Positions 24,186 to 49,531 are shown, numbered from the whole stretch's first letter. The stretch is 63,901 bases of DNA, filler included, from an uncultured Methanosarcinales archaeon (GCA_964434475.1; 3 parts of 3 records of this genome joined end to end with filler, not necessarily neighbours in it); one strand, 5' to 3'. Notes: a model not told the origin generated them from the sequence alone. Program-made: numbers and translations.

Positions 24186-24285
24186 NNNNNNNNNNNNNNN
24201 NNNNNNNNNNNNNNNNNNNNNNNNNNNNNTTAATTAATTAANNNNNNNNNNNNNNNNNNNNNNNNNNNNNNNNNNNNNNNNNNNN
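24186..24285. other. Artificial assembly spacer
   Basis: 100 nt of N containing TTAATTAATTAA (stops in all six frames). Confidence 0.98.
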
Positions 24286-27594: not shown

Positions 27595-28323
27595 TTACAC
27601 CTCTTTTAAAAAATTAAAAGCATTATCTTTGACAGAATTATACGCTAAATCCTGATAAAGCTCTTCTTTTCCATCTTCCTTATAAAATAAGGGAATTCCT
27701 TTATAATCCCATAATCCCATCTGTATTGTTTTACCGTTTTCTGAGAATTCTATAATCTTACAATTCTTATTCGTGTCGCACTGCCTTTCCTCTATTATTT
27801 CTGCAGCAGCTTTTATCTCGCTTAATCTGTCAAAAGGAGTCTTATAGTAATTGCTTTCATAATCTATCTCACTAGATGTTTCATCCATTGCCATACATTC
27901 AGGCAATCCCTCGCATACTTTGTATGCTTTTTTGTTCTGCTTGTCAAAATATATCGCAGTATACTCATTATCATTAAGTTTAGAATAAAATATTTTCATA
28001 TACTGCCTACTTACCTTAACCTTAAAGCTTGTTTCTCCGTCATATGTATAAGCTAATGAGCTTACAGATTGCGATTTTTGAAGCAATTCTTCAAGCTCTT
28101 CATTGACTTCTATCTGTTCGGACTCTTGTATCTCTGACTCTTGTGTCTCAGGCTCTTGCACTATATTTTTAGGCTCTTCTTGAGTTTCTGGCTCTATAGC
28201 TTTTACTTTTTCTTGAGGACACATACTCTTATCTTCAACAACACTTCCATCTGGGCAAACATACTGCTGACCGCATCCAACCAAAAAAAGCATAATAAAT
28301 AAAATAACAAAATATTTTTTCAT
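27595..28323 (-). CDS. Lipoprotein of unknown function
   Basis: Lipobox LVGC, YVCPDGS motif, Glu/Pro-rich linker. Confidence 0.75.
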   Translation of the reverse strand: MKKYFVILFIMLFLVGCGQQYVCPDGSVVEDKSMCPQEKVKAIEPETQEEPKNIVQEPETQESEIQESEQIEVNEELEELLQKSQSVSSLAYTYDGETSFKVKVSRQYMKIFYSKLNDNEYTAIYFDKQNKKAYKVCEGLPECMAMDETSSEIDYESNYYKTPFDRLSEIKAAAEIIEERQCDTNKNCKIIEFSENGKTIQMGLWDYKGIPLFYKEDGKEELYQDLAYNSVKDNAFNFLKEV

Positions 28324-28324
28324 C

Positions 28325-28939
28325 TTAACACCTCTGACTCATATATTCGCTGCCTTCTGTCGTATCTATAAGATATTCATTTGACTTGTATTCACCAGAC
28401 GGCATAGTAAAATCAATCTTCAAAACATAGTATTTGCCTTTTTCTAAAGTATCATACTTAGAATATCTTGGACACTCTCTTTCTTCACAGATAATATAAT
28501 AATTCCAACTGTTATATTTATTGGTTTCAGAAGTTAATGTTGTATATTCCTTATCATATTCCTTTATCATTATATCAACATCTGCTACCTGTCCTGCTTC
28601 ATAATACACAGCAAAACCTAGTGTACTCATAACGCAAGTTGGCTTTACTATTACGTCTTTTACATATATGCTGTCCTCATCTCCTGTCATCAATTCAATT
28701 GTAGGTTTTTCTTCAATAACTTCTGCGGATTCCTCTGCAACAGGCTCTTTTTGCACTATTGTCTCGCATTCAGCTGCGCTATTCTTTATGCTTCCGTCAG
28801 CACAAACATATTTTACAACTTCTTGCTCGACAAATTTAGTGACTGTCTCAGGCTCGCACTCAGGACATATACATTCTGGACACTTGGTGCATCCAGTCAA
28901 AACAAAAACCAAGATCAACATTAATAAAATTCTTCTCAT
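28325..28939 (-). CDS. Cys-rich lipoprotein of unknown function
   Basis: Lipobox LTGC, CPECICPEC, YVCADGS motif. Confidence 0.75.
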   Translation of the reverse strand: MRRILLMLILVFVLTGCTKCPECICPECEPETVTKFVEQEVVKYVCADGSIKNSAAECETIVQKEPVAEESAEVIEEKPTIELMTGDEDSIYVKDVIVKPTCVMSTLGFAVYYEAGQVADVDIMIKEYDKEYTTLTSETNKYNSWNYYIICEERECPRYSKYDTLEKGKYYVLKIDFTMPSGEYKSNEYLIDTTEGSEYMSQRC

Positions 28940-28968: not shown

Positions 28969-30801
28969 TTATTCTTCTGCATAATTATCCGCTAAACTAA
29001 GCAGATTTTTCTTTTCATTTACAAATCTGTTAGCAACAGCTTCTTGTACTTTCTTATCGCTGCTTTTAAAATATGCTAAAGCTCCATCATCATTCCTTTT
29101 GAGTTTTTCAGCACTCACTGCATTGATTATCTCTTGTTCTGATAAACTAGAAACATCTTCCCCTTTTAAAGCAGAATTGATCACATTTGAACCAGGACCA
29201 AACTGCACAGCTGTAGACCAAACCATCTCCTGTATTGCTGGAGATTTTACATTGACATTCAATCCAGTATCTTTATTCACATTATCAGCCATAACATCAT
29301 AATGAGTCTTTTTGATAAACTTATATTGCGCTTCTGAAAAAACCGTATTATCCTTTTTTGCAACCTGTTTCCATTTTTTATCAAACTCATCTGTGCCTGG
29401 GTCTAGTCCCTTAAATTGTTCGCCATAAGCAGGAAATTTTTTCAAAAAACTTGCTGCTCTTCCTTTTGTAAGTTGATATATGCCATACTCTTTTCTAGGA
29501 GATATTGCACCAGCATCGTCTCTTGATTCATAATAACTGCTTATCTGACCAATCTTATATACCCTATCCAATTCAGAGATATGCACATAAGCCCCTCCTA
29601 TTCCAGAAAAACCAGAATCTTGTTTATTCTTACTGTATATGCTTGTTTCTCCTTTCTCTGCGTCTACATCTCCGTTCTTATTCATATGTATAGTATGCTC
29701 TTCAAGAACAACATCAAGATCATAATCCAAATTATCCAAAGTGCCCCATGTTTCCTGAACAAAATTATTATCTTGTATCTTTATCTTATTTCTGTTTGCC
29801 TTTACGACTATGCTTTGGTCGTCATCAATAGTCTGCTGCGGAACATAAACCTTGTTTTCCTTTACCCTTATTTTTGCTCCTATAACTTCAATATCATCAT
29901 AATCATCAAAATATATGCTTGCAGAACCTTTTGTTGTCTGTATCTCTTTTCTTTCTCCGCCAGATGTTTCAGCATAAAATCCATTAGTTTCAATATTAGT
30001 TTCAATCTCACTATATCCTAACACTGCTTTTTTTATCTTATTGTCTTCAAGTATAATAATAGGATTGTCTTCTGAATATATTGATTTGATAGCTGCACCT
30101 TCTTTTACATTAAGTTTTCCTTCTCCGTTTATGCCTTGTTTGTTTCCGTTATCCATAGAATAGTATTTTGCAGTTTCTGTGGTCAGATGAGCTTCAACAT
30201 TTTGGTTTTTAATCTTTAGATTATTGCCAGTTTCTAATACAACCCCTAAATCTCCATTTGCTCTTTTTATCAGCCTATAGCCTATTCCTTGATCGCTTTT
30301 CTCTCCTACTATATCCAAACCATTAAATTCTAAATTTTCAACATCCTTTACAACAATCTCATCCTCTGCTTTTACTTCAACATTCATACCTTCTACTGCA
30401 TCTATATTAAAATCTCCAATCATAAGCCTATCTTCACTAAATTTTATCTCTCCTGCGTTTATGTTATTTGTCTTAATTTCAGTATCTGCTATCTTAACTC
30501 CTCCTTCAAAAAAGACAACATCTTTGTCTTGAAGCTGCCCTTTATTTATTTTTGTGCCATCTTTAAGCACAAAATAATTATCTTCAGTATATTTTATACC
30601 CTCAACACGAGCAAAAGTTATAGACCTTAATCCAGTAGCTTTCGCCAGTTCTTCTGAATTTAATTGAGATATATCTTCTTGTTCACTAAGAAAATTAGCA
30701 TCCATCTGTTCTGCTTTAATCTCTTCTCCATCATGAGCTATAGCAGAGATAGACAAAATTAATAATATTACAACAATAACAAAATAATTAAGCAGCTTCA
30801 T
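28969..30801 (-). CDS. Secreted protein with C-terminal VgrG3-like lysozyme/peptidoglycan hydrolase domain
   Basis: SD AGGAGG, signal peptide MKLLNYF...AIA. C-terminal about 190 aa: IGQISSYYES...YGIYQL...F.GL.PGT.EF.KKWK.VA...F.EAQY.FIKKTHYD...S.AIQE.VWSTAVQFGP...YFKSS...VQ..V..RF..E. Confidence 0.75.
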   Translation of the reverse strand: MKLLNYFVIVVILLILSISAIAHDGEEIKAEQMDANFLSEQEDISQLNSEELAKATGLRSITFARVEGIKYTEDNYFVLKDGTKINKGQLQDKDVVFFEGGVKIADTEIKTNNINAGEIKFSEDRLMIGDFNIDAVEGMNVEVKAEDEIVVKDVENLEFNGLDIVGEKSDQGIGYRLIKRANGDLGVVLETGNNLKIKNQNVEAHLTTETAKYYSMDNGNKQGINGEGKLNVKEGAAIKSIYSEDNPIIILEDNKIKKAVLGYSEIETNIETNGFYAETSGGERKEIQTTKGSASIYFDDYDDIEVIGAKIRVKENKVYVPQQTIDDDQSIVVKANRNKIKIQDNNFVQETWGTLDNLDYDLDVVLEEHTIHMNKNGDVDAEKGETSIYSKNKQDSGFSGIGGAYVHISELDRVYKIGQISSYYESRDDAGAISPRKEYGIYQLTKGRAASFLKKFPAYGEQFKGLDPGTDEFDKKWKQVAKKDNTVFSEAQYKFIKKTHYDVMADNVNKDTGLNVNVKSPAIQEMVWSTAVQFGPGSNVINSALKGEDVSSLSEQEIINAVSAEKLKRNDDGALAYFKSSDKKVQEAVANRFVNEKKNLLSLADNYAEE

Positions 30802-31513
30802 TTTCTCCTCCTTTAACAGCGAACATAAATATAAAATCCTGCTCAGATATTTCAATAACATAGATAGTATAACCTAATGCGTTATATGCGTTGATGTCAT
30901 AACCATTGTTTTCCTTCAAACTAAGCATAAGCATCAAAGGTACTTCATCTGGTTTTTCAAGAACAACATCCAGCAATTTGTTTGTCACATTAACCAAAGA
31001 ATCAATATCAACATCTATAGAATATGTAAAATCAGAATAAGCTTTTGTTGTTCCTGCTTTTGTGACTTTCATAGGATAATCAAGATTAAATGTTATCTTG
31101 CTGTTGCCAAATATCTCTATCTCTTTTTCAAAAAACTCAAAACTATAACCTTGGTTTTTCAAAGCATTGAAATCATCAAAACAAAAATCAATATTAATCT
31201 TAACCATCTTTTCAAGATTTTTTATAAAAATGCTCTTGTTTAGCTTATCGCCTAAAACATAGACAGGCACATCCCCAATATCAGAGATGATATAATCATC
31301 TGATTCAAGCATACCTCCAATATATCCTAACTGATACAATTGCTCTTTACTTGTTTGCTCCAAACATTCCTGAACATACATCTCAACATTATCAAAACTT
31401 TCAATATTTTGTTCAACTTTTCTTTCCTGCATAAATGACCATAAGAAAAACATAGCTACAATAAGTATTCCAATAATAATGTAAATTGTTATCTGCCCTC
31501 TTTTGTTCTTCAT
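30788..31513 (-). CDS. Class III signal peptide, pilin-like protein (paralog 1)
   Basis: KNKRG/QITIYIIIGILIV; YVQECLEQ...LGYIGG; CFDDF..LK.QG; LDYP; overlaps the start of the downstream secreted gene. Confidence 0.75.
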   Translation of the reverse strand: MKNKRGQITIYIIIGILIVAMFFLWSFMQERKVEQNIESFDNVEMYVQECLEQTSKEQLYQLGYIGGMLESDDYIISDIGDVPVYVLGDKLNKSIFIKNLEKMVKINIDFCFDDFNALKNQGYSFEFFEKEIEIFGNSKITFNLDYPMKVTKAGTTKAYSDFTYSIDVDIDSLVNVTNKLLDVVLEKPDEVPLMLMLSLKENNGYDINAYNALGYTIYVIEISEQDFIFMFAVKGGENEAA

Positions 31514-31550
31514 ATTAATATTATTCTTTATCATCTTAATCTCATCAAGC

Positions 31551-32051
31551 TTAATCAACAGTTGTAGTAAAAAAATCTCCATGTTTCATATGGAATAATC
31601 TTTTGCCTATGCCTTCTTCATGCTTTCCTGTTATTTTCCCTATAATAAATATATGATCTCCTGTCTCAATCTCTTTTACAACTTCGCATTCAAAATATGC
31701 CAATACGCCTTTTATCCTGCAGCAGTCTATAGAACTGCAATCTTCAATCTCAATATTAGCTTTCTCAAATTTGTCTATATGCTCTCCGCTATGCCTTCCT
31801 ACATATTCAACAACTTCCTTAAAATGTTTTGGTATGAAGTTGACACAAAAAACTTTACTTTCCCTTATCAAATGCAGACTATACCTTGTCTTTGCTATGC
31901 TTATGCCATAAAGTTTAGGTTCAAAAGACAATGGAGTATGCCAGTCAACCGCCATCACATTATCCTTTTCGATTATCTTGGTCGAAAACTTATCTTTAAC
32001 CCTGTGCCTTGTAGTCACTAAAACAGTTTGTCGTGGATAAGCTTCATACAT
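31551..32051 (-). CDS. Flavin reductase-like protein
   Basis: YPRQTVLVT, W.TPLSFEP, FCVNF, GRHSG..IDKF, ECEV...IETGDH.FIIGK. Confidence 0.88.
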   Translation of the reverse strand: MYEAYPRQTVLVTTRHRVKDKFSTKIIEKDNVMAVDWHTPLSFEPKLYGISIAKTRYSLHLIRESKVFCVNFIPKHFKEVVEYVGRHSGEHIDKFEKANIEIEDCSSIDCCRIKGVLAYFECEVVKEIETGDHIFIIGKITGKHEEGIGKRLFHMKHGDFFTTTVD

Positions 32052-32052
32052 T

Positions 32053-32811
32053 TTAAAATTTCATCCTTATTGGTTTTCTTGATATACTGAATACATTAAC
32101 TAGATAAAACACGAAAAATATTGCATAATGTACATAGTAAAAATTAAAAAATAGATTGATCATCTCCAATACCATCAATAATATTGAACTATATAATCCT
32201 GCTTTCAATATAGATATATAATCTGCCCTGTGCTTTGCCACATATATTATGATATATAATATTGCGCTGAATGCAAGGATGACCAATAAAATCTTAATCA
32301 GCATGAAGAAATACGATGCAATCACAAATCCAGGAAGCATTAACAAAAAAAGTAGATAAAGAAAATCGCTTGTCTTTTCCGTATCTTCTGTAAAATCCTT
32401 ATATTCGCTAAAATCATAATATCTTTTTCCTATTGCAGATTTAAAAAAAAGGTTTTCTCCGGTTATAAGAAATTTTTCATTTCCTAATCCTGTATACTGA
32501 CCTGTTGTGTCTATTATTAATCTAGGATTATTTTCTGGAATCAAAATAGGATCGTTCATAGAAGCGTTTATGTTTAAACTCAAAGTATCAAATTTAGACA
32601 TATGATGTCCAATATTGTTAGGCATAGCAAAAAGCTTAGGCAATAATAGAACAAAGCTTATAAGAAATATCAACAATAATACTGATGTAAAGAATTGCAT
32701 ACCTTTAGTCAGATCTCTTTTGCTTAGTTCAGGATATTGACTTGGTAGACAACTCCTATAAATAGTCTTAAAAAATGTCCTAAATTCGTCTTTAACCCCT
32801 TCTTTTATCAT
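32053..32811 (-). CDS. Membrane protein (DUF1189-like)
   Basis: N-terminal TM, extracellular loop with IIDTTG, several C-terminal TM helices. Confidence 0.55.
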   Translation of the reverse strand: MIKEGVKDEFRTFFKTIYRSCLPSQYPELSKRDLTKGMQFFTSVLLLIFLISFVLLLPKLFAMPNNIGHHMSKFDTLSLNINASMNDPILIPENNPRLIIDTTGQYTGLGNEKFLITGENLFFKSAIGKRYYDFSEYKDFTEDTEKTSDFLYLLFLLMLPGFVIASYFFMLIKILLVILAFSAILYIIIYVAKHRADYISILKAGLYSSILLMVLEMINLFFNFYYVHYAIFFVFYLVNVFSISRKPIRMKF

Positions 32812-32891
32812 CTTTGCTATATAATATATAATCTATTTATATAGTTTACGATTTAGTTTTAGTTAAAATAATAGAAAAAAACAAGAAATAA

Positions 32892-33464
32892 TCAATCATC
32901 AATTATCAGAATAATATCTTTGTCTTCTTCAATTTGAGTTATATTGAAATTAACAAATATGTGTTCAACCAATTCAAGAATATATTCTTTTCTTTCTGAA
33001 CGCTTAAGAAAGCTCAATGCAAACTTTTTTTTGCCGACGCGCTTCATCTCTTTTAATCCTTGCTTTATATCGTCAAAATTCTGTATTGCTGTCAAACTGA
33101 GTATATAGTCAAACTCATTGTCTTTGAAAGGAAGTTCTTCTGCACACGCTTGCTTTATGAATATTTTATTTTGATTTTTTTTTATATCTTTTTCAAAACC
33201 AGCATCATTTTTCTTATTTTTATTTTGTTTATCTTCTTTTTTTATCCTATCTTTAAAAATACGCAACAACCCCTGAGAAGGATCTACAGCATATACAATA
33301 CAATCCCAATCACTGCTTATACCTGTTCCACAGCCAACATCTAACAATTTGTCATTCTTTTTTGGCTTGATGTTTTGTTTAACTATCGCAAGCTTCTTCA
33401 GCTGCTCTTCAGAATGCAATTCATCATATCCAGAGGATATAGAATCGTAGTAGTTCATCTTCAT
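32892..33464 (-). CDS. Class I SAM-dependent methyltransferase
   Basis: LLDVGCGTG, AEELPFKDNEFD, LKEMKRV. Confidence 0.9.
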   Translation of the reverse strand: MKMNYYDSISSGYDELHSEEQLKKLAIVKQNIKPKKNDKLLDVGCGTGISSDWDCIVYAVDPSQGLLRIFKDRIKKEDKQNKNKKNDAGFEKDIKKNQNKIFIKQACAEELPFKDNEFDYILSLTAIQNFDDIKQGLKEMKRVGKKKFALSFLKRSERKEYILELVEHIFVNFNITQIEEDKDIILIIDD

Positions 33465-34516
33465 CCTGCTTCTTCAACAGCTTTAAGCGCAGTTCTTGCA
33501 TTTTTGCTTACTGATGCTGTTCCAAAGACAGACTCTACAATACGAAGAAACAATCCCTTGTTTTCAGTTGCATCTTGATCAACGTAGGCCATTGCGGAAT
33601 TATCAATAATTGTTCCATCTTTTTGAACTACCATAAGGTCAATATCTTCATCCGCTCTTGGAGAATAACTTTGAAATCTGATTTCATCATCAACCTCGCC
33701 CCATCTTGCATCAAAATAGGAATATGTTGCTTTTTGACGTCCGCCTTCATTGCTCAAATAAATATCCCGCCCATTCTCTAAAGTAACGGTTGCACTTGCA
33801 TCCCTGGGTAAATCACTAAATATCCTATTAATTGTTTTTGTCTCTACTTCACCACCATCATTTGTAACCTGTTCAGTAAATTCATCAACTTGAACATCGC
33901 CACCACTAAACAATTCAATATATTTTTCACCGGTGTTAGTAACTGTCCTTCCATGCCAATCATCAGTCTTAATGCTTGCACCCGGAGTTAAACCAGCTCT
34001 GACTAGTACACCTTCTTCATCTGTAAATATCTTTACTTTCCCGTTTATCTCAACAGTCTCTATAACATCTCCATCATTATTTTTTAAATAAAGAGTGGTT
34101 TTACCAAACATTGTACTTTTTCCAGTTACATCATAAGTATTGTCACCATAAGAGATTATTTCTCCATCACCAGATGGCTCAAAGATAAGAGAATCTCCAA
34201 CACCTACACTAGAAGCTGTTTTTATGGTAACCTTACCTGAATCCTTATTATATATAATATTATCACCATCGCCTAAAAGATAGTCCTGATCACCTATTGT
34301 AACACACATAGCTTCTGAACTTTTAACCTGTAAAACGTTCCCTCGAGTTTTAAAATTACCTTTTGCATCATCTGAAAACGCAACATCATCAAAGCCTTCA
34401 ATAGGATCTTCTCCTATATCACTCAGACTTCCTGATTCACCCTCTTCCTCTGCAACAACACAAAAAGAAAGCAATAAAATCACTAAAATATAAACAAACT
34501 TCTTCATCATATTCAC
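33461..34516 (-). CDS. Secreted acidic beta-rich protein (cassette passenger 2)
   Basis: Signal peptide MKKFVYILVILLLSFCVVA; 4-nt overlap with the upstream pilin-like gene. Confidence 0.7.
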   Translation of the reverse strand: MNMMKKFVYILVILLLSFCVVAEEEGESGSLSDIGEDPIEGFDDVAFSDDAKGNFKTRGNVLQVKSSEAMCVTIGDQDYLLGDGDNIIYNKDSGKVTIKTASSVGVGDSLIFEPSGDGEIISYGDNTYDVTGKSTMFGKTTLYLKNNDGDVIETVEINGKVKIFTDEEGVLVRAGLTPGASIKTDDWHGRTVTNTGEKYIELFSGGDVQVDEFTEQVTNDGGEVETKTINRIFSDLPRDASATVTLENGRDIYLSNEGGRQKATYSYFDARWGEVDDEIRFQSYSPRADEDIDLMVVQKDGTIIDNSAMAYVDQDATENKGLFLRIVESVFGTASVSKNARTALKAVEEAG

Positions 34517-35235
34517 CTTCTCACACCAAACGCATAAACTAATGCCGAACCCTGAACATTTGAAATAGGATCTGAAACAACAAACAACTTTTCATTATCC
34601 TTTACCTGAAATAGTCTAAAATTCAGGCCGAACTGTGCATAATATGCAGGTTCACTTATATCTGGATGACTTTCAATTTCAGCAGTAACATTATTTATAG
34701 TCTCAATCATATAATTCAATCTTATTGGAAATTTCATAGTAAACTTACTAAATTCTGAAACAGAATCCCCTTGCTTGACTGTCAAAGGATAATCGACATT
34801 CAACAAAATATCTTCATCCCTTATAATAAGGTCAGAAGTTACATTTCCAACAGAAATATCAAAACCTTGTTTTTCAAAAAAATCATAAGTACAAACAACT
34901 TCTACAGGAATAGGATACATCCTACTAAATTCCCTTTGTATTATTTCTTTTGTCAATACATTTCTTAACCCACTACTATATAGATAAACAGTATCAAATC
35001 CAGGCAAAGACATCCTATCAGTAGGCTGCTCCATAAATCCACCTCTTAGGCCAGAAATTGCAATAGTGATTTCTGCAGCTTCTTCTAAACATTTTTGAGT
35101 ATAATGCTTCACTGAAGATGTATCTATAAACTCTTGTTCAATCCTTTGGGTATTTGTATAAATTAAAAATGCTGCACCCATAACCAAGAACAATCCTAAT
35201 ATTATAAACAAAGTGATTTGACTCTTTTTTTTCAT
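34513..35235 (-). CDS. Class III signal peptide, pilin-like protein (paralog 2)
   Basis: KKKS/QITLFIILGLFLV; YTQKCLEE...GLRGG; CTYDFFEKQG; VDYPL; PIRL. Confidence 0.75.
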   Translation of the reverse strand: MKKKSQITLFIILGLFLVMGAAFLIYTNTQRIEQEFIDTSSVKHYTQKCLEEAAEITIAISGLRGGFMEQPTDRMSLPGFDTVYLYSSGLRNVLTKEIIQREFSRMYPIPVEVVCTYDFFEKQGFDISVGNVTSDLIIRDEDILLNVDYPLTVKQGDSVSEFSKFTMKFPIRLNYMIETINNVTAEIESHPDISEPAYYAQFGLNFRLFQVKDNEKLFVVSDPISNVQGSALVYAFGVRR

Positions 35236-35352
35236 TTTAATATAATATAATATAATTTCCTTGTTTAAATATTTTACCTAAAAGTAAAATATGTCACTTG
35301 ATAGTTGTTATATATCCGTTAGATTTATAAATGTTAATCCAATATCTTGCCT

Positions 35353-35766
35353 ATGAGCCTAAAAGACATAGTTTTAAAGCTTAATGACTACAAATATGCA
35401 GCAGCTACAGCTTTAACAACATATGGGCTTGATAATGCAACAACATGGTATGCTTGTGAAAAATTAGGCATCCATTGTGAAACAAGAAGCATAATAATTG
35501 ATGATTTTCTAAGACATGACCCTGCTCAAGGCCTTCTTACAAGATATGCAATAGGCGGAACTGTTCTTTTAATCGGATCAAAAGCTTTAGACGTTGCAGG
35601 AAACAAAGCAGCTAGCTACGTCTCAAAAAAGTTAAGCGAAAAATTTCCTGAAAAATTCTCAGGAAAAGAGTTAAAACCAAATTTAGGTTCAATAGGATTA
35701 TATGCATATGCGCTCTACATAGCTCCTGCAGTGATAAATAATGTTTCAGTAATTCTCGACAAATAG
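35353..35766 (+). CDS. Small membrane protein (DUF5658-like), paralog of 46450-46950
   Basis: LD..TT.Y...K.G...E pattern plus hydrophobic helices. Confidence 0.5.
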   Translation: MSLKDIVLKLNDYKYAAATALTTYGLDNATTWYACEKLGIHCETRSIIIDDFLRHDPAQGLLTRYAIGGTVLLIGSKALDVAGNKAASYVSKKLSEKFPEKFSGKELKPNLGSIGLYAYALYIAPAVINNVSVILDK

Positions 35767-35836
35767 CCCCACATAAGTGATTAAATTCCAGTTAGTTTTA
35801 TAAACTTCTATCATTAAATAAATATACGTGCGAACG

Positions 35837-36874
35837 ATGGTAAAACAATACAGCTTAGACGAAATAGTAACAGAATATGATATATTAATAAATTCTAAAG
35901 CAAACAAAATATGTGATATAAAAGACAAGAATCTTCTGCATAATTTCCTAAAAGAATCATCATTATATCTGCACGCACTTCATAAAGAAATCATCAATCC
36001 AGAAACATTCAAAAAACATCTGGATATTATAAAAGGATTATCCATTTCTGAATTAAAGTTGATCAATGATTATTTATATTTTTTTGGAAAAAAAGAAAAT
36101 TATCCTATCATAGATAAGATTATCAACAAAGGAATTATTTTAGATGATTTTGAAAGAAAAGCACACAAGGTATCTATAGAATGTTATGGTTCATATAAAC
36201 CAGATAAAGATAGTGAAAAGAAAAGCTATAGAGATATGATCATTCATTTTATAAGATATATCTCAGCCATAGGCGATGAAGAAACAAGAGAACTCGCACA
36301 GAACTCAATATCAAATATCAAATCCAAAGTGTTAGACCCAATCATAAAACTATATCAAGCCACTGATAAAGGATTAAGAACAACACTCCAATTAAAAGCC
36401 TATCATCAGGAATTATATTATTTAAATGTAATAGGGATTAAAAAATATGGCATTTTTCCTCAACTTGACAGGGAATACCATACATTAATAAAAACTTATG
36501 AGAATAACAAGATAGATCTTAAAGAGATAGAAAGATACATGAACATCATAAATGGATTATCTATGGAAGATATGTTTATGATAGGGTATTGGTCAGATTT
36601 ATTAAAGCTTGATAAAAGCAGAGATATAGTAAAAAAGGTACTAAAAGATGAGACAGATGGATTAAAAGATGAACCAAAAAAAACATATGATATTATAATA
36701 GAAAAACATGAAAACCTCAAACAAAACTTCAACACAAATATGAGCTTTAAACAAACACTCATGCATTCAGTAAGACATATGTACAATAACAACAAATACA
36801 AAAGGTTAAAGCAAAAGATAGAACCTCTTCTTGAATATGTTGACAAAGATATTTTAATAATCCCGAAAAAATAA
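35837..36874 (+). CDS. Hypothetical helical protein with internal duplication
   Basis: Two similar halves, e.g. HLDIIKGLS/YMNIINGLS and SYRDMIIHFIRYI/SFKQTLMHSVRHM. Confidence 0.6.
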   Translation: MVKQYSLDEIVTEYDILINSKANKICDIKDKNLLHNFLKESSLYLHALHKEIINPETFKKHLDIIKGLSISELKLINDYLYFFGKKENYPIIDKIINKGIILDDFERKAHKVSIECYGSYKPDKDSEKKSYRDMIIHFIRYISAIGDEETRELAQNSISNIKSKVLDPIIKLYQATDKGLRTTLQLKAYHQELYYLNVIGIKKYGIFPQLDREYHTLIKTYENNKIDLKEIERYMNIINGLSMEDMFMIGYWSDLLKLDKSRDIVKKVLKDETDGLKDEPKKTYDIIIEKHENLKQNFNTNMSFKQTLMHSVRHMYNNNKYKRLKQKIEPLLEYVDKDILIIPKK

Positions 36875-36880
36875 TGTAAA

Positions 36881-39800
36881 TTAAGAATCCATTATTACGA
36901 AAGTTATATCATCCGTAAATTTTGAAGCATCATATACAGGGGTTAATAAATCTGAACTTTCCACAACTGTCTTAAATTCATCTACTGATCCGTATTTATC
37001 AGTACTCCACTTATACGCCTTGTTTAGCATTATGTTATGAACTTCTTTATTAGTATGTCCTTTACTAAAAAGATCAGATACTACTCCTGTTATTATATCA
37101 TCATCTAACCTGCCCAAAGTACTATGAGAAATATCTGTTATCCCATCAGTGTACATGAAAACCTTATCGCCTTTACCTAAAGTTAAAGCAACATCAGGTC
37201 CCTCAGTTATAGGAGTAGGAAATCCTAGTTTAGTGCTGCCCCCTTTGTCGATAAAAGAATAACTTCCATCTGGTTTGATAACTGATGTTTGCACCTCACC
37301 CATCCTTTTAAATTTCATAACTTTTGTTGATTTATCGTAATTTATCTCTCCAACAGAACAACCTGAAGAATACCAATCATCTAATTTATATATATCATCA
37401 TGTAACTGAACAAAACTCTTTCCTTCTTGAATACCTTTTTCAACTCTGTGTGAGGCTACTGCACCCGGAACACCGTGACCAGTTCCATCAAATACCTTAA
37501 CATTAATCACCTCTCCTTTCCTAGAATACATTATATTATCTCCTCCCGGAGTTATACCTTTCTTTATAAGATGAACCTGTTCAAGATCATCAGAATCAAT
37601 CTTTGAAACATATCCTAATACAATATCAGGATCCTGACTTGCTGCTTCAATGTTCATCAAGGTTGACTGCTCTGCTTGACGAGCAAACTCAATCCTTGCA
37701 TCTTTTCCATATAAATTAGCATAATTTTTAGCGATTCTTTCATTATTATGGATAGAATTTTTCAGATCGTCTATCTTTGTTTGCATCGAGATAAGATCGT
37801 CCCCTGAAGCAGAAGATAATTGCGTTTCAAGCTTAGTCAAGTCATCATCCAACAGTATATTCCTATTGTTTAATTTATTTATCCTTTCTTTCAGCCATCC
37901 AGATGTTTTGGTAGCAGGAATTCCTTGTTCATCAAGAACTGTTTTAGGTATCTCAATAGGCTTAAATTCTTTTATCACTCCTTTATCTCCTGCCTTTATT
38001 AAACCTACTGGTTTCTGTCCTATTTTTCCTTGTTGACGAAAAACAGCCATATCAACTCTTCTATAAATATCATCATAAGCATCCTGTTTAATCAAACCAT
38101 TTTTAACAGATTTACTCAATTCATCCATGTAATTTTGCATCTCCACAATTCCTTCAGCATTATCCTCTTTATTCATATAGGTTATTAACTCATCCACTTG
38201 TTTGTTTGCTGCTGAAGCAGTTTCATCAGACAATCCTACAACTTCAGAACCTTTGATAGTATCTATAGTTTCATCTCCTAAAGAAAATAATTTTGCCTGA
38301 CCTTTGTTTGCAGATAAAGAAGAATAATCATCAAGATTAAGTGTTACCTTATTAGGCAGAGTGTTTTTCAAGGATTCTACTACACGTCTGCTTGTATCTT
38401 TAAGACTTTCTACATTTGAAAAGAACCTTTCATTTATGTAGTTTGACTTTGCTTTTGACAAAGATTGAGAATAACCTGCTAATCTATTACCACCCATAAC
38501 AGGTTCTTGTACTGCTATCCCTGAAGTTCGTAAATCTCCAAGTACTGCGTTTAGATCATCCCAATATTTAGCTGCTAAAGCATTATCTCCAGCTTCTCCT
38601 GCAACTCTTATCTGTTTGACTAATTTTTCTCCTTTAGCGATAGCATTTAGATTCTTTGAACCTGGACCTATGTTCTGCAAAAAAAAAGAATCACCGGAAG
38701 TTAATCTATTTGTAACCTTACCCAGCGTGTTTCCGACAGGCTTCATCACTTTTGAAAAAGTTGGCAATAATTCATCTACAGTTCCAAAATTAAATCCTTT
38801 GCCCGCATTATAAAGATTCTTTACTCCATTACTTAAGGATGATGCGCCAGGTATCTTGCTCAATGTTCCACCTACTGCAGTCGTTATGGTTGTAAATTCA
38901 GGAGCTAATCCTAATCCTTTAAGTGCACTAAATCCCAAAGTGCCTATAGTCAATGGATCTCCTGCAAACATCTGCGATATTTCACCGTATTTGTCCAATG
39001 ATTCAGGACTTGCTTCTAGGCTTAACACCTTATAGTTTCCCTCAATCAAATTTTGGATAGAACTCTGGCTGCCAAGCGCTGCAGAAGTCAATGTTGTCAA
39101 TAAGCTGCCTGTTGTTAAATAATCTAACTTTTCTTGAGCTTTTTCACCATATTCTACTGATTTTGTAGCTAGCTCATAATGAGGTATAGCTAAAGCAGAA
39201 TCATACATATCTTCCATAAGATCGCCAATCTCGATGCTATACTTAGCAGTATCTATGTTTCCATTCTGGTATTGATCAGCAGACTGTTTCAAATAAGGAT
39301 GCTCTACTGCAGATTTTAAGTCATTGAATTTTTCAACATAAGTTTTTTCAGGAGACAATTCTCCTCCTCCTAAAAGATTAAACTTCTGCTCATTATCATT
39401 TGAATTCACAAAAGTTTGTATTTGATTAGGTGTCAAACCTTTATCCAACAAACCACTATATACTTCAAAACCATCAGCATATCTTTGAGCATCATTTAAT
39501 GCAGCCTCTGCTATAACAAGCTGATCCTCCTTAACTCCTAAAAGGTTAAATACATTTATTGACCTGAAAACTCCTGTTGCAATCTTGCCAGGAAGAGAAA
39601 CAGAACTTGGATCTGCTATAGATTCTGCATCTATCTTTTTCTCAGCATAGTTTTTTTGAGCAAATTTTAAATCGCGTTGTATCTTTACTAGATCCTTTCG
39701 AAATTGCTCTTTTGCCAGCTTATTTTTACTTTCTGATACAGTATCAAAATACAATGAATCTTCATCAATATTATTAAGATGTTCATAAACAGAAGCAACA

Positions 39801-42427
39801 TCTCCATACATAGACGCTTTTGCTAATTTATAGAATTCAACAACATCGTCGCTTCCTTCTATCTTGCTTGCTGTCTCTATAGATTTATCAAACTGAAGAG
39901 TATTTTTGTACGCTTCTGCCTTTAACTCAAATAATCTTCTGTCTATATGTTCTGCTAAAAGTTCACCCTCTACCATATTATTTCTTTCATCACTCAATAC
40001 TTGAGCGTAAGCTTGTTCGATAAGATCAGATGATTCCATCTGCAAAGATTCCATATTAGACATATGCTGGTCTAATTGTTCAACATAGCCAGCTATCTTC
40101 TCCTGACTCAAAGCAGCATCTCCATAAGGCACCATATCCCACCAAGCAGCCGCTTTTTCTAAGATGCCCAGGTTTCCTTCTGCAATCCTATTCGCATATT
40201 CCCTATTCTGTACACCGCCAATAAGGGAATTTAACTTATCTATCTCTTTTTGTTCAGCTTGTATCCTATCTGAATAAGATCTTATCTCATTCAATGTTTC
40301 AGCATCAACATTTCTAGAAACTATATCATCAGCAGCTTTCCTCAACAATATATCTTTTTCATATTTTTCATTTAAAGCAGCATATCTTGCTTCATCTAGA
40401 TATTGTTTTGGAGAATTCAATGAACCATAATCATTTATATTTTCATTTAATTTCATTGCCAGCTTTGGATTAGTATTCTCTAAAGACATCGCTAATTCTC
40501 TTGCTTCTTGATATTTTTCTTGCTCCAACAAATTATTAATCTCTTCATTAAGCGCAATCTCTGAATCAGAAGCAAATACTATTTCATTACCTCCATAGTA
40601 ATCTCCCAGATAGCTAATTATAGCGTTTCTTTCCCCATCACTATATCCAATAACGCCTGCTCTGTTTACATCCAAAAGATTATCGCCTTCAAGATTCAAC
40701 AAAGATAATCTGTTTTTCATAAGAACCTGAGCATCATTTTTTACATATTCACTTAACCTTGGAAAATCTTCAACAGACAATGAGATAAGATCATCATTGA
40801 AACCAAAGCTTAATGTATCTTTTTTCGCTATACCATTGCCAAGATTATATACTATGCCTTTTGTTATTGTTCCTGTTCCTTTCTCATACATATAATCCAC
40901 ATCGTTTTCCCTTCTGAAACTAAACTTACCCTCTTCAAGATGTGTCTTGAAATAATCAGCAACATCCTTATCGCCAAAAGAAAACTCAAAACCATGATTC
41001 ATATTAGCCTCTTCAGCCACGGCATTTATTACAACATTCCCTGAATTATATTCATAATCAAGATTGTTCCCATATGATTTTGAAAAAGAATCAAAATTAC
41101 CCTGCGAAACATCAAACTTGCCCCTCATGCTTAAAGTACCATCTTTCTCATACACAAAATTCTTAAGAGGCTTGTACTTCTCAAAAGGCAGCCTATCTTC
41201 AGATATATGCAAAGGAGAATCTATATCTACTGGTTTTGCTATAGTACCAGTAACATGGTTCTGGTAAGATGTTATTCCATCTTGATTGAATAAGGTATAA
41301 ACATTGTTTGTTCTCCTGAATGTTCCTGATAATGTCTTGTGTTCATCAACAGCATCATCTAACTGTCTTAATATCCCAACAACAGTATTCTTTGCATCAA
41401 AATTTCCTTTATTGTCAAAAGCAAATCTTCCTTCATAGCTTTTTTTAGTATAACTAGTTCCTGCAAGGTTGATATCAGCCCATACATCTCCTTCCATAAT
41501 CCTTCTAAAAGAATTAATCTGGACAACTGACTTCAAAGAAGCATCAATTGGAAGCTCATCGCTTGAGATATCAAGAACTAAAGGATTTATTGAGGACTTA
41601 TACAAATTATTACCTTCAAAAACTTCCATACCTTGAATATTGGTTATCCTTGTCCTATCTGAAAGAACATCAATCTCAAAATCACCTGATGCTGATATTT
41701 TTCCATAATAATTGCCTTGAGATATTGAATATGAGCAAGATTTGGCATCAATAGTATTTCCAAAAACATCAATAATCCCTTCATCATCTGCATTTATGTC
41801 TATAACTTTTCCAAGATTAACATCATAGAACTTAAGATAAGCATCTTTACCAGATATAGTATATGAACCATCTGGTCTGATCATAATATCTCCGTTAAAC
41901 TCATTGCCTGCAATATTTCCAAAGCCCGATGAAATCAGATTATTATCCTGATCAACAAAAATATCTCCAATAAGGTCAAAAGACTTTTGTTCAATAACTA
42001 CCCTAAATCCGCCTTCCTTAAGCGCAACAATACCTGTTATATCATTCCTTTGTTTTATGTCTTCTATGCTTATAGTATTTCCATCTCCATTCGTAAGTAT
42101 TTTAGTATCAGGATTGTAATCTACTTTAGATACAGAACTAAAATCAAGATCAGGGGTTATTCCCAAATACTTTTTGAACTGTTCATAATACTTAGCTACA
42201 TTCTCGCTATCTTGTGCATAAAAAGAGTCAAGTTTTTCCATATTAGCAGGATTTGACAACTGCTCATCGCTTAAAGTTGTAATAGAATCAGAATTATCTA
42301 TTATGTTTTGCCATTGGCTGTCAGATATTTCTGAATCATCATTTGGAGCGATTATATTAAAGGAAAGCATAATCACTAATAAAAATAATACAAACATCCT
42401 TCTCTTTATACTTTTTTCAATCCTCAT
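36881..42427 (-). CDS. Giant secreted protein (1848 aa) with TPR-like helical region and C-terminal SpoIIE/PP2C-type phosphatase domain
   Basis: N-terminal signal peptide; C-terminal motifs VFDGTGHGVPGA, GDKVFMYTDGITD, DDITFVIM. Confidence 0.8.
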   Translation of the reverse strand: MRIEKSIKRRMFVLFLLVIMLSFNIIAPNDDSEISDSQWQNIIDNSDSITTLSDEQLSNPANMEKLDSFYAQDSENVAKYYEQFKKYLGITPDLDFSSVSKVDYNPDTKILTNGDGNTISIEDIKQRNDITGIVALKEGGFRVVIEQKSFDLIGDIFVDQDNNLISSGFGNIAGNEFNGDIMIRPDGSYTISGKDAYLKFYDVNLGKVIDINADDEGIIDVFGNTIDAKSCSYSISQGNYYGKISASGDFEIDVLSDRTRITNIQGMEVFEGNNLYKSSINPLVLDISSDELPIDASLKSVVQINSFRRIMEGDVWADINLAGTSYTKKSYEGRFAFDNKGNFDAKNTVVGILRQLDDAVDEHKTLSGTFRRTNNVYTLFNQDGITSYQNHVTGTIAKPVDIDSPLHISEDRLPFEKYKPLKNFVYEKDGTLSMRGKFDVSQGNFDSFSKSYGNNLDYEYNSGNVVINAVAEEANMNHGFEFSFGDKDVADYFKTHLEEGKFSFRRENDVDYMYEKGTGTITKGIVYNLGNGIAKKDTLSFGFNDDLISLSVEDFPRLSEYVKNDAQVLMKNRLSLLNLEGDNLLDVNRAGVIGYSDGERNAIISYLGDYYGGNEIVFASDSEIALNEEINNLLEQEKYQEARELAMSLENTNPKLAMKLNENINDYGSLNSPKQYLDEARYAALNEKYEKDILLRKAADDIVSRNVDAETLNEIRSYSDRIQAEQKEIDKLNSLIGGVQNREYANRIAEGNLGILEKAAAWWDMVPYGDAALSQEKIAGYVEQLDQHMSNMESLQMESSDLIEQAYAQVLSDERNNMVEGELLAEHIDRRLFELKAEAYKNTLQFDKSIETASKIEGSDDVVEFYKLAKASMYGDVASVYEHLNNIDEDSLYFDTVSESKNKLAKEQFRKDLVKIQRDLKFAQKNYAEKKIDAESIADPSSVSLPGKIATGVFRSINVFNLLGVKEDQLVIAEAALNDAQRYADGFEVYSGLLDKGLTPNQIQTFVNSNDNEQKFNLLGGGELSPEKTYVEKFNDLKSAVEHPYLKQSADQYQNGNIDTAKYSIEIGDLMEDMYDSALAIPHYELATKSVEYGEKAQEKLDYLTTGSLLTTLTSAALGSQSSIQNLIEGNYKVLSLEASPESLDKYGEISQMFAGDPLTIGTLGFSALKGLGLAPEFTTITTAVGGTLSKIPGASSLSNGVKNLYNAGKGFNFGTVDELLPTFSKVMKPVGNTLGKVTNRLTSGDSFFLQNIGPGSKNLNAIAKGEKLVKQIRVAGEAGDNALAAKYWDDLNAVLGDLRTSGIAVQEPVMGGNRLAGYSQSLSKAKSNYINERFFSNVESLKDTSRRVVESLKNTLPNKVTLNLDDYSSLSANKGQAKLFSLGDETIDTIKGSEVVGLSDETASAANKQVDELITYMNKEDNAEGIVEMQNYMDELSKSVKNGLIKQDAYDDIYRRVDMAVFRQQGKIGQKPVGLIKAGDKGVIKEFKPIEIPKTVLDEQGIPATKTSGWLKERINKLNNRNILLDDDLTKLETQLSSASGDDLISMQTKIDDLKNSIHNNERIAKNYANLYGKDARIEFARQAEQSTLMNIEAASQDPDIVLGYVSKIDSDDLEQVHLIKKGITPGGDNIMYSRKGEVINVKVFDGTGHGVPGAVASHRVEKGIQEGKSFVQLHDDIYKLDDWYSSGCSVGEINYDKSTKVMKFKRMGEVQTSVIKPDGSYSFIDKGGSTKLGFPTPITEGPDVALTLGKGDKVFMYTDGITDISHSTLGRLDDDIITGVVSDLFSKGHTNKEVHNIMLNKAYKWSTDKYGSVDEFKTVVESSDLLTPVYDASKFTDDITFVIMDS

Positions 42428-43461
42428 TCCACAACAAACCTCACATCAACTGAATCAACAGCTCTTTTTTCGTCAACTACACTGATAGTGGTTTCATATT
42501 CTCCAGGAGAATCAAATCTTTTGGATATCAATCCAGTATCCTCATCAATAGGAATATAATCATTTGATGATTGAAAAAATAATCTATCAAGATCATCATC
42601 AGATGCTAAGACATTATACTCAAAAACAGTGCCAGAAGTAATCTTAAAATCAGGCAATGGCTCAAGCAGAGGTCTTGAGTTTGGCTGTGTTTTTTTAACA
42701 AAACTGAAAATATAAGGCTCATGGAACATGTCTGAGTAAGGATCAACGATTGAGTAAAGTATAGTCCTTTTATCGAAAGGCACTATCATAACATCATAAC
42801 CAAGAACAGTAAATCCAGTTAATGAAACAGAATTTTCAATATCCATATTATTCAGCACATCATCAACTATCTTTCCTAGTCTTACAGGAACTGCAACTAT
42901 GAATCTGTCTATATTTGTTTTAGTGTTGCCAGAACTCGCACTTATTTCATAATCAAGCTCAACTACAACTTCTTCTGGATTTATCAAAGTTTCAACAACC
43001 ATATCTTTTGCTTCAACATTTATTCCTTTTCTTTTGAATACAGAAAAATCATCCAAGCAAAGTCCAATATTTTCTTCAATATATCTATTTATACCCTTCT
43101 GCATAAAATTCATATTAAAAAAAGTATTACTGTCATCCACTATACCATAATCCCTATATTTAGTAGAATATACCATAAGAGAATTTTCAGCAGAGTATAA
43201 TATGCCTCCTCTTTGACCTAATAGATACACTGCATCTTCTGTTGTTTGTTTTAAACATGAACTTACAAAAGAATACAACCCTAAAGAATCATCAGAAATC
43301 TTGATTGAGGATCCAATATCTTCATCTACAGAAAGATTGATTATCAACAAAATGACAGAAGAAAATAGAAGCATAAGTATCGCTACTATTATAAATATAC
43401 TTATCTGCGCTTTTTTATTCTTATCTTTATTAATCATATTAATAATCACACAATTATTCAT
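42424..43461 (-). CDS. Class III signal peptide, pilin-like protein (paralog 3) with C-terminal cadherin/Ig-like domain
   Basis: KNKKA/QISIFIIVAILML; FVSSCLKQ...LGQRGG; CLDDF..FKRKG; PVRL; C-terminal N.RP.L...F.Y.V.ASD.D.D.L.F...ID..TG.I......G.Y..TI.V.D. Confidence 0.78.
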   Translation of the reverse strand: MNNCVIINMINKDKNKKAQISIFIIVAILMLLFSSVILLIINLSVDEDIGSSIKISDDSLGLYSFVSSCLKQTTEDAVYLLGQRGGILYSAENSLMVYSTKYRDYGIVDDSNTFFNMNFMQKGINRYIEENIGLCLDDFSVFKRKGINVEAKDMVVETLINPEEVVVELDYEISASSGNTKTNIDRFIVAVPVRLGKIVDDVLNNMDIENSVSLTGFTVLGYDVMIVPFDKRTILYSIVDPYSDMFHEPYIFSFVKKTQPNSRPLLEPLPDFKITSGTVFEYNVLASDDDLDRLFFQSSNDYIPIDEDTGLISKRFDSPGEYETTISVVDEKRAVDSVDVRFVVE

Positions 43462-43501
43462 TTAATTATTCAATTAATTTTTATAAAACAGCAATCCTAA
43501 C

Positions 43502-43630
43502 TCATACCTTAAATCTGCTAAAATCATAGCTCAATGCTTTTATCCTTTGCACTTCTTTTATATTCTTAATCTGCTCTACGCTTATCTTCTGATTAAGCTG
43601 TCTTGCTTTCTCAAAATTCGTTAAATTCAT
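43502..43630 (-). CDS. 42-aa micro-ORF coupled to the AbrB gene
   Basis: MNLTNFEKARQLNQKISVEQIKNIKEVQRIKALSYDFSRFKV; strong SD AGGAGG; ATGA overlap. Confidence 0.55.
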   Translation of the reverse strand: MNLTNFEKARQLNQKISVEQIKNIKEVQRIKALSYDFSRFKV

Positions 43631-43791
43631 CTTTTATCTCCTCCTTTATCTAGAACCAATCTTCCTTTTTCATCAAAGGAAAAATTCAGAACATCGCCTT
43701 TTTTCCAGCCTTTGGCTTCAACAATACTTTTAGGTAATGTTATTGTGTATTGTTTCTTGTTTGGAAACTGTAGTCTTGATCTTGCTGCCAT
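43627..43791 (-). CDS. AbrB/MazE/SpoVT family DNA-binding protein (54 aa, missing from the ORF track)
   Basis: MAARSRLQFPNKKQYTITLPKSIVEAKGWKKGDVLNFSFDEKGRLVLDK: ITLPK.I....GW..GD.L swapped-hairpin signature. Confidence 0.85.
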   Translation of the reverse strand: MAARSRLQFPNKKQYTITLPKSIVEAKGWKKGDVLNFSFDEKGRLVLDKGGDKR

Positions 43792-47083: not shown

Positions 47084-47183
47084 NNNNNNNNNNNNNNNNN
47101 NNNNNNNNNNNNNNNNNNNNNNNNNNNTTAATTAATTAANNNNNNNNNNNNNNNNNNNNNNNNNNNNNNNNNNNNNNNNNNNN
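47084..47183. other. Artificial assembly spacer
   Basis: 100 nt of N containing TTAATTAATTAA. Confidence 0.98.
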
Positions 47184-47231
47184 GCAATTAATCTAAAAAG
47201 CTAAGCTAAACAGCAATTATGCAAAGTTCTC
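47184..47231 (+). mobile_element. Terminus (putative right end) of the IS5-like element
   Basis: Identical in reverse complement to 24135-24182; ends AATTATGCAAAGTTCTC. Confidence 0.75.
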
Positions 47232-49392: not shown

Positions 49393-49531
49393 TTTTATAG
49401 CCACCTTTGAGATTGTTATCACTGTAAAGTAAAGTTTATTTATAAATCTAATTGTTATTTTATGTTTTTTCTTGATTTTTGTCTATTTATAAATGAAAAA
49501 AATTATAAACAGAGCCATAATTCTTTATTAT

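Follow-up and report, generated by a model that had tools for sequence, protein, structure and literature searches.

What do three small archaeal proteins with prepilin-like N termini have to do with the large secreted proteins encoded directly downstream of them? The question is raised by a stretch of 63,901 nucleotides (nt), filler included, from an uncultured archaeon filed under Methanosarcinales (GCA_964434475.1), referred to here as the window, in which three genes on the minus strand, termed paralogs A, B, and C, are each followed by a gene for a secreted passenger, A', B', and C', respectively. An earlier note on this DNA had described the three cassettes as a polymorphic effector system in which each pilin-like protein is an adaptor that displays its passenger on a type IV pilus. 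Our analysis leads us to a different reading, which we hold tentatively: each cassette may encode two cognate proteins, predicted to interact, that form a surface module of a DPANN archaeon of the Nanoarchaeota type.

Small proteins with an EppA-type class III signal

Paralog A (positions 30788 to 31513, minus strand; 241 amino acids [aa] from the start MKNKRGQ, with alternative starts possible at 31534 or 31582), paralog B (34513 to 35235, minus strand; 240 aa), and paralog C (42424 to 43461, minus strand; 345 aa) were delimited from their open reading frames (ORFs) and alignments, together with hydropathy for A and B, an AlphaFold 2 (AF2) model for A, and a Pfam scan for C. Their N termini read KRG/QITIY, KKS/QITLF, and KKA/QISIF, where the slash marks the predicted cleavage site, and follow the pattern K-[KR]-[GAS]/Q-I-[TS]-x-[FY]-I-I before continuing into about 22 hydrophobic residues, which form the sole hydrophobic segment of each protein. 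What had earlier been called a prepilin-like N terminus can now be specified as an EppA-type class III signal with Gln at +1, as the Epd pilins of Methanococcus maripaludis have the same processing motif; EppA, which requires Gln at +1, cleaves them at RAQI, KGQV, KGQL, and KGQI (PMC4371748, Table 1).

Behind this N-terminal helix, A and B consist of the same globular domain, which in A comprises about 205 aa and contains two cysteines, and C joins an A-type domain to a C-terminal extension. The three proteins can be aligned over their whole common length, with 25 to 27% identity to A, and Q7, I8, C50, L51, G63, G66, G67, C111, D114, F115, G122, D145, Y146, F162, and F231 (A numbering) are invariant among them, so that the earlier description of three paralogous genes with common motifs holds, down to the PIRL/PVRL motif, said to occur in two of the three and present in B and C only. 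The three are old paralogs by sequence comparison, with A more similar to P0006/L001, which is encoded in another genome (35% identity), than to B or C. The extension of C includes an immunoglobulin (Ig)/PKD-like module (residues ~262 to 338; 42448 to 42678, minus strand), recognized by a weak PKD_4 match (E 0.062) and by its alignment with the extensions of several homologs (P0004, P0005, and P0016). PF17963 is precomputed on P0004 and P0016, and Big_9 was found in 2 of the 80 family members scanned.

Passengers with unrelated C termini

Each small gene abuts or overlaps the gene of an acidic protein with a signal peptide, as the earlier note had stated. The A/A' junction is a 14-nt overlap, with the ATG of A' at 30801; B and B' overlap by 4 nt if B' starts at a GTG, and are separated by a 2-nt gap if it starts at the ATG 6 nt downstream; and C and C' share a 4-nt ATGA overlap. 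The passengers have pI values of 4.3 to 4.8 and a single hydrophobic segment each, which is N terminal and preceded by K/R residues, and hydropathy revealed no C-terminal membrane segment in A', B', or C'.

Passenger A' (28969 to 30801, minus strand; 610 aa), assigned from its ORF, Pfam, PDB sequences, and hydropathy, has a Sec-type signal, an acidic N-terminal region of about 400 aa, and a C-terminal domain (residues 418 to 597; 29011 to 29550, minus strand) that matches PF21277 (VgrG3-like_C) over profile positions 2 to 183 of 183 (E 2.8e-45; 155 bits versus a cutoff of 27) and PDB entries 4nso and 4noo at E 3.5e-23. By homology, this domain is of the VgrG3-type peptidoglycan hydrolase family, with predicted hydrolase activity. 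Passenger C' (36881 to 42427, minus strand; 1848 aa), delimited by its ORF, Pfam, and hydropathy, begins with a signal or anchor after K/R residues and has a long region of unassigned fold, followed by a match to PF07228 (SpoIIE/PP2C; E 7.1e-8; 33.1 bits versus a cutoff of 25; profile positions 7 to 142 of 192) at residues 1643 to 1772 (37112 to 37501, minus strand). The region shows D-G-T-G-H-G, T-D-G, and D-D-I-T motifs, which we take to be PP2C signatures; the C terminus is, by these similarities, a PP2C/SpoIIE-type phosphatase domain with predicted activity, and the domain probably extends beyond the matched residues to the end of the protein. Passenger B' (33461 to 34516, minus strand; 351 aa), delimited by its ORF and hydropathy, has a Sec-type signal, is acidic, and matches no Pfam family above threshold. 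The C termini are thus unrelated, as noted earlier: lysozyme-like, without known domain, and PP2C.

Outside these two domains, the passengers proved hard to place. Searches of 5.8 billion proteins for homologs of B' and of the N-terminal ~400 aa of A', confined to near-length matches, found nothing beyond the proteins of the window itself, C' had no match among PDB sequences, and residues 30 to 1640 of C' had no usable match in the ESM Atlas. That the passengers are rich in beta structure could not be confirmed, its sole basis being a low-confidence single-sequence AF2 model of B' (predicted local distance difference test [pLDDT], 48.6).

A very large family and a conserved gene pair

A word-indexed search returned 20 homologs of the small proteins from outside the window (E down to 1.7e-37), the few with named sources coming from Nanoarchaeota and Pacearchaeota, and with each species represented by a single genome, 205 relatives could be confirmed; 80 loci were kept for detailed work. 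These 80 are nearly all from metagenome-assembled genomes titled Woese-, Pace-, or Nanoarchaeota, some being labeled Methanosarcinales automatically and one Omnitrophota. With a profile built from the globular part only, leaving out signal and helix (alignment A3, 32 sequences), a library of 1.84 billion proteins yielded 8229 matching cluster representatives at E ≤1e-3, 6470 at ≤1e-10, and 1734 at ≤1e-30. The phylum to which the genome with locus L079 belongs was sampled evenly with 201 genomes of at least 70% completeness, and 191 of them had the domain, with 1 to 12 matches in each. The ESM Atlas returned only unnamed Nanobdellota and Woesearchaeota clusters for paralog B. Members range from 236 to 1014 aa, and many are long forms of 600 to 750 aa with extra C-terminal regions. 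By sequence comparison, this is a very large family, nearly universal in the sampled phylum, that matched no Pfam or NCBIfam family model, so that defining it would improve the annotation of thousands of proteins. Literature searches turned up no account of the family or of the gene pair; the supplementary tables of one survey (PMC13705601) may already count its members among the scattered "system 1" pilins of DPANN archaea.

The pairing with a secreted protein is likewise widespread. Of the 80 loci, 72 had a member ORF with definable limits, and in 67 of these 72 the contig continues downstream. Under a loose rule (next gene codirectional, within 130 nt, at least 200 aa, and with a hydrophobic N terminus), pairing was seen in 44 of the 67 loci, with 29 of the 36 short-form and 15 of the 31 long-form members paired. 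Under a strict rule (gap of at most 60 nt, at least 400 aa, and a hydrophobic N terminus), a partner follows 41 of 65 members but only 47 of 596 other genes of the same loci (odds ratio, 20; p 4e-24). This profile search and tabulation of downstream genes, which the earlier note had suggested as a check, bears out that homologs are preferentially followed by secreted proteins. The gaps between member and partner are mostly −4 to +5 nt, the partners are 400 to 2000 aa long, and tandem arrays of two or three cassettes, as in the window, occur at L020, L022, L032, L075, and L079.

For 22 of 26 members, the nearest relative of the member has a partner of the same class, which shows, at the level of sequence, that member and partner are inherited as a unit; because relatives share labels, the same agreement is not proof of coevolution. 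Within one long-form member, in cis, lies a region that is 35% identical over 191 aa to the partner of another member, a weak, sequence-based hint of fusion, and such a resemblance to a partner was seen in 1 of 35 long-form extensions tested.

Diversity of the partners

The 48 partners available (45 of the relatives and the 3 of the window) fell into BLAST clusters of 7, 6, 6, 3, 2, and 2 and 22 singletons, with A', B', and C' all singletons; at E ≤1e-3, BLASTP found none of the three window passengers similar to one another or to any of the 45 partners of the relatives. The partner classes with six or seven orthologs are those of L012, L025, L027, L028, L031, L048, and L071; of L009, L023, L053, L059, L068, and L074; and of L020, L022, L032, L049, L075, and L079. 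A Pfam scan of 37 of the 45 gave no family at E ≤1e-4 for 28, only Ig- or fibronectin type III-like domains for 7, and an enzyme-like domain for 2 (Trypsin_2 in L064 and NAGPA in L070), compared with an enzyme C terminus in two of the three window passengers. No PilY1/DUF2341-type Pfam match was present in the window passengers or the 37 scanned partners, and no common C-terminal motif was apparent by eye among the 48. The partners of the relatives are highly diverse, and few of those scanned have an enzyme domain.

The earlier interpretation as a whole is borne out in part. The conserved pairing of a pilin-like gene with a secreted protein stands, and the label of a polymorphic effector system is not supported, since the passengers have no common N-terminal region that could serve delivery, enzyme domains are rare among the partners, and the family is nearly universal. 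So wide a presence among the sampled genomes is more easily reconciled with a core function at the surface than with an accessory weapon. No immunity-like gene was recognized, although no dedicated test was made.

Two features of the partner sequences were noted in passing. In A' and the otherwise unrelated partners at L002, L014, L033, and L076 only, a short motif, L/M-N/S-x(3,4)-D-L/I-x(2)-A-I/V, was seen by eye after the signal peptide and might be a docking peptide. A separate class of partners (L020, L022, L032, L041, L049, L072, L075, and L079) opens behind the signal peptide with a stretch rich in cysteine, of the C-C-E-K-T...C-Q-N type, and is paired with short-form members that end in C-x-[IL]-P-x-G.

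Processing, fold, and filament machinery

The class III signal is a property of the family and not only of the window proteins. All of 23 aligned members have Gln at +1, the two cysteines do not vary in sets of 23, 32, and 80 members, and a short charged leader with a small residue at −1 and a hydrophobic stretch was found in A, B, and C and in 70 of the 72 member ORFs of the relatives, by a FlaFind-like rule rather than by the FlaFind program. The mature N terminus is conserved through about +9 in the aligned members and, more widely, over thousands of sequences, farther than a simple membrane anchor would require. Signal and domain also go together: in about 1 Mb of the relatives' loci, the family domain was present in 79 of 80 class III-like ORFs with Gln at +1 and in none of 10 without it, and all seven exact matches in five genomes to a degenerate DNA pattern for Q-I-T-x-F/Y-x-I lay just upstream of a match to the family domain.

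The AF2 model of paralog A (pLDDT 90.4; predicted template modeling [TM] score 0.77) consists of a helix (residues 4 to 34), a low-confidence break, two further helices (41 to 64 and 93 to 119), a six-stranded sheet, two helices, and a three-stranded sheet. The family profile found nothing among PDB sequences below E 0.07. A complex prediction for B (residues 34 to 240, 80-row alignment) with mature B' (residues 23 to 351) scored 0.36, compared with 0.32 for a control, which gives no verdict either way.

The machinery that would process and perhaps assemble such proteins is present in the relatives. An A24 prepilin peptidase was found in all five genomes examined and in 197 of the 201 sampled, T2SSE ATPases were found in all five, each with one of about 765 aa, and T2SSF platform genes were found in three of the five and in 158 of the 201; in those three, T2SSF takes the form of two adjacent ORFs beside the ATPase. 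No archaellin was detected in the five relatives. In the DPANN genomes covered by a 2026 survey, ATPase and platform genes are adjacent and pilins scattered, with Epd-like "system 1" pilins in 1990 genomes, according to its account of these systems (PMC13705601). Of the type IV machinery that the earlier note had asked about, A24 peptidase, T2SSE, and T2SSF genes were thus found in genomes of relatives, and no pilus locus was found in the window or beside the cassettes.

The family is present in each of the 43 genomes (of 201) without a PF00482 match, and PF00482 is present in each of the 10 without the family. We set PF00482 absence aside as a test of filament dependence, as one Pacearchaeota-titled relative (G001) has a complete type IV filament-like locus (L105:869-12531, minus strand, with G001:C1:455580-455918) that is itself PF00482 negative. 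Besides an A24 peptidase and a 752-aa T2SSE ATPase, this locus encodes eight prepilin-like proteins that bear a K-K-G/ signal lacking Gln at +1, and a 731-aa protein that has about nine membrane segments but does not match PF00482; because this second locus of G001 is PF00482 negative, the PF00482 model evidently misses some platforms.

A proposed surface module and its alternatives

Taking these data together, the small protein may be a prepilin-like anchor or adaptor, seated either in the membrane or in a filament, by which the cognate secreted protein is retained on the cell, although we regard this as a provisional choice. By its sequence, the upstream gene encodes a prepilin-like protein with a short, positively charged leader, a predicted [GAS]/Q cleavage site, a strongly conserved mature N terminus, one hydrophobic helix, and an extracytoplasmic alpha/beta two-cysteine domain of about 210 residues. 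The A24 prepilin peptidase of the genome probably cleaves this protein, whose N-terminal helix would then keep it in the membrane or seat it in a type IV filament. From the same message, the downstream gene would supply the large, fast-evolving, Sec-exported partner, for which the gene coupling and the lack of a membrane anchor of its own are observed. The small protein would bind this partner and hold or present it at the surface, where it could provide adhesion or an enzymatic activity, the latter being predicted in the window from the VgrG3-type and PP2C domains. With several cognate pairs per genome, varied surface functions might be based on one conserved anchoring principle.

A number of findings weigh against this reading. 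The residue at +5 is Y in A and F in B and C, as observed earlier, with F or Y as the family consensus, whereas Glu is typical of EppA substrates at this position (PMC4371748). No pilin fold was recognized: Foldseek of the A model against the PDB gave TM scores of at most 0.20 and no significant pilin match, and in VIA alignments, of which the best reached a Z score of 5.1, PilX (3.9), PilS (3.9), TTHA1218 (4.1), and GspI (3.5) lie within the noise range of the tool. The A model also has its low-confidence break, at residues 34 to 36, at the boundary between hydrophobic helix and domain. None of the 80 members matched a curated pilin family or another meaningful Pfam family at E ≤0.01, a search in which the short pilin models are insensitive, and none matched the Pfam class III signal models; a single member weakly matched an NCBIfam pilin-related model, that of the GspG major pseudopilin (E 4.2e-4), with no other pilin model found. 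No filament machinery lies beside the cassettes, as neither the window (A24 peptidase, T2SSE, and T2SSF) nor the conserved neighbors of the relatives' loci include any. Finally, 24 of the 65 members have no partner under the strict rule, and no docking motif common to the partner classes was found at either end of the partners.

The original proposal, in which minor or tip pilins display the passengers on an extended type IV pilus and the passengers are polymorphic effectors acting on or in other cells, draws on some of the same evidence. The EppA-type signal and the extended conserved mature N terminus would suit it, as would the A24 peptidase, T2SSE, and paired T2SSF genes of the relatives in an Epd-like "system 1" layout (PMC13705601), the bacterial precedents CofB-CofJ (PMC6048534) and PilK-PilC/PilY1 (PMC13533445), and the two window passengers that end in enzymes fit for attack, a VgrG3-type hydrolase and a PP2C. 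Secreted peptidoglycan hydrolases are described as prominent in Nanoarchaeota, and a predatory lifestyle has been proposed for some Woesearchaeota (PMC12352652 and PMC9723730), with which A' fits. We nevertheless consider this proposal quite unlikely, given that A', B', and C' have no common delivery region, only 2 of 37 partners of relatives have an enzyme-like domain, no immunity-like gene turned up (again with no dedicated test), neither Foldseek nor VIA found a pilin fold, the cassettes never stand beside machinery in the window or among conserved neighbors, and near-universal presence is unlike accessory toxin cassettes. That the family occurs in 43 of 43 PF00482-negative genomes points the same way, as a test weakened by the PF00482-negative filament locus in at least one relative.

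Two further explanations dispense with pilus-borne effectors. The small protein could be an independent pilin or surface protein whose secreted neighbor is merely cotranscribed, as part of an envelope regulon or operon, without forming a specific complex. Members without a strict-rule partner (24 of 65), the extreme heterogeneity of the partners with 22 singletons among 48, the want of a common docking motif, and the C-terminal modules that long forms possess themselves all speak for this; however, 4-nt overlaps together with the codivergence of subfamily and partner class in 22 of 26 cases over a long evolutionary distance argue against mere chance sharing of operons, several genomes have two or three such pairs in one locus, and the passengers lack an anchor themselves, so that we judge the explanation unlikely. 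Alternatively, the small protein could be a membrane-tethered extracytoplasmic chaperone or export and assembly helper that acts transiently and stays outside the final structure. One-to-one cognate pairing upstream of very large and probably hard-to-fold secreted proteins would make sense for such a helper, a disulfide-type cysteine pair on a membrane tether would place it at the exit side of Sec, and its alpha/beta fold, as modeled, is unlike that of pilins. Yet a plain anchor would not need a strict class III cleavage motif and mature N terminus, diversification into 1 to 12 cognate paralogs per 1-Mb genome is rare for chaperones, and neither Pfam, the PDB profile search, nor VIA revealed similarity to known foldases, which together make this explanation quite doubtful. 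The prepilin-like anchor or adaptor accordingly stays our preferred, if provisional, reading.

Relation to known systems

By analogy, the cassette could be regarded as a variant of the theme of a pilin-like protein with an associated secreted protein, of which TcpB and TcpF of Vibrio cholerae, a type IVb minor pilin and a secreted protein, are reportedly one pair. In function, bacterial pairs of this sort are its nearest counterparts. In enterotoxigenic Escherichia coli, the pilin-type protein CofB binds the neighbor-encoded, Sec-exported CofJ, whose N-terminal peptide binds the tip pilin (as described for this pair in PMC6048534). Both of these pairs are encoded inside a pilus operon, whereas the window cassettes stand alone and no relation in sequence or fold was found; moreover, only a subset of the window-type partners shares a short motif after the signal, and the pairing here is known from the genes. 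In the modular type IV pilins, reportedly exemplified by PilB of Streptococcus sanguinis, extra modules are found, much as paralog C and the long forms carry additional C-terminal modules (Ig-like and others) on a conserved pilin-like part, but the conserved part of the small proteins is not a recognized pilin fold.

The combination of a small pilin-like protein with a very large Sec-signal adhesin also recalls PilK and PilC/PilY1, in which a C-terminal strand of the adhesin completes the sheet of the pilin (PMC13533445), and analogous large adhesins have been proposed in the archaeal pilus loci treated in PMC4858521. The partners described here differ in having no conserved C-terminal strand motif or PilY1-type Pfam match, and the genes lie outside a minor-pilin operon. 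Like the substrate-binding proteins of the Sulfolobus bindosome (PMC13705601), which are the nearest parallel as regards gene location, the small proteins place a class III signal on large globular proteins of a non-filament type encoded away from the machinery; unlike them, their two-cysteine domain is not a solute-binding fold by Pfam, and the neighbor is a giant secreted protein rather than an ABC transporter.

The closest likeness in the signal itself is to Epd/EppA of M. maripaludis, with its [KR]-[GA]/Q-[IVL] motif and Gln at +1 (PMC4371748), and it extends to gene order, as the genes are scattered away from the machinery and the ATPase and two adjacent platform genes of the relatives correspond to the "system 1" layout (PMC13705601). 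The small proteins depart from the Epd pattern in having Y or F instead of Glu at +5 and no Pfam class III match in any of the 80 members, and in being far larger when mature, with an alpha/beta domain of about 210 aa or long forms of 600 to 1000 aa. As for the passengers, the C-terminal domain of A' is homologous to that of V. cholerae VgrG3 (PF21277, E 2.8e-45; 4nso, E 3.5e-23), but A' has a Sec signal and is not a type VI secretion spike, its N-terminal region of about 400 aa is an orphan, and it is paired with a prepilin-like gene. The presence of several cassettes in one region with differing C-terminal enzyme domains resembles polymorphic toxin systems, from which the cassettes differ by having no common N-terminal trafficking region and by the scarcity of toxin-like domains, absent from most partners of the relatives.

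Possible role at the contact surface

DPANN archaea depend on contact with other cells, and to our knowledge the contact proteins of the Woese- and Pacearchaeota types are largely unknown. Being nearly universal, present in multiple copies, and equipped with a class III signal, the small-protein family offers a testable handle on this surface, the more so as its genes are tied to the largest and fastest-evolving secreted proteins of 1-Mb genomes. The cassettes probably build the contact surface with other cells, and the family may be a main reason why 197 of the 201 genomes retain a prepilin peptidase. The VgrG3-type hydrolase and the secreted PP2C link the module to the proposed antagonism toward bacteria. 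A bolder version, to which we assign little probability, is that the small protein is the phylum-wide docking subunit of a DPANN contact apparatus, with paralogs that, once cleaved by the single conserved A24 peptidase, would enter a type IV filament or the membrane and each carry one hypervariable giant secreted protein, be it an adhesin or an enzyme such as a hydrolase of bacterial cell walls; if this were true, the set of cassettes would determine which hosts or prey a cell can attach to and exploit.

Neighboring genes in the window

With 32% G+C and genes for RuBisCO, FttA, and the proteasome, the window has a content indicative of a DPANN-type archaeon. Between the cassettes lie housekeeping genes, namely, those for a flavin reductase, a DUF1189 protein, and a methyltransferase, and two plus-strand genes of no known family. 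Just upstream of cassette C, positions 43627 to 43791 (minus strand) encode a 54-aa MazE/AbrB-type protein (PF04014, E 2.2e-7), the start of which is the upper coordinate that the earlier note had given to the system; it overlaps by 4 nt a 42-aa ORF without a family (43502 to 43630, minus strand), and the two could, from their sequences, be a small regulator or antitoxin-like pair.

Directly downstream of A', two adjacent ORFs (27595 to 28323 and 28325 to 28939, both minus strand) have lipobox-like N termini (L-V-G-C and L-T-G-C) with a common N-terminal cysteine motif, match each other by BLASTP at E 4e-4, and belong to no Pfam family. Past A' and these ORFs, about 1.4 kb downstream of the A cassette, is a homolog of the RuBisCO large subunit (26317 to 27591, minus strand; PF00016, E 8.3e-92), an enzyme known from nucleotide salvage pathways of DPANN archaea. 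Masked sequence, in the form of two 44-N runs separated by 12 bases, occurs at each of two intergenic sites outside the cassettes (24186 to 24285 and 47084 to 47183), four runs in total. A secreted protein of 738 aa, encoded farther away (47206 to 49422, minus strand), combines an S-layer-like domain (PF05124, E 3.1e-9) with a GILT thiol-reductase-like domain and is a candidate S-layer or surface protein of the organism.

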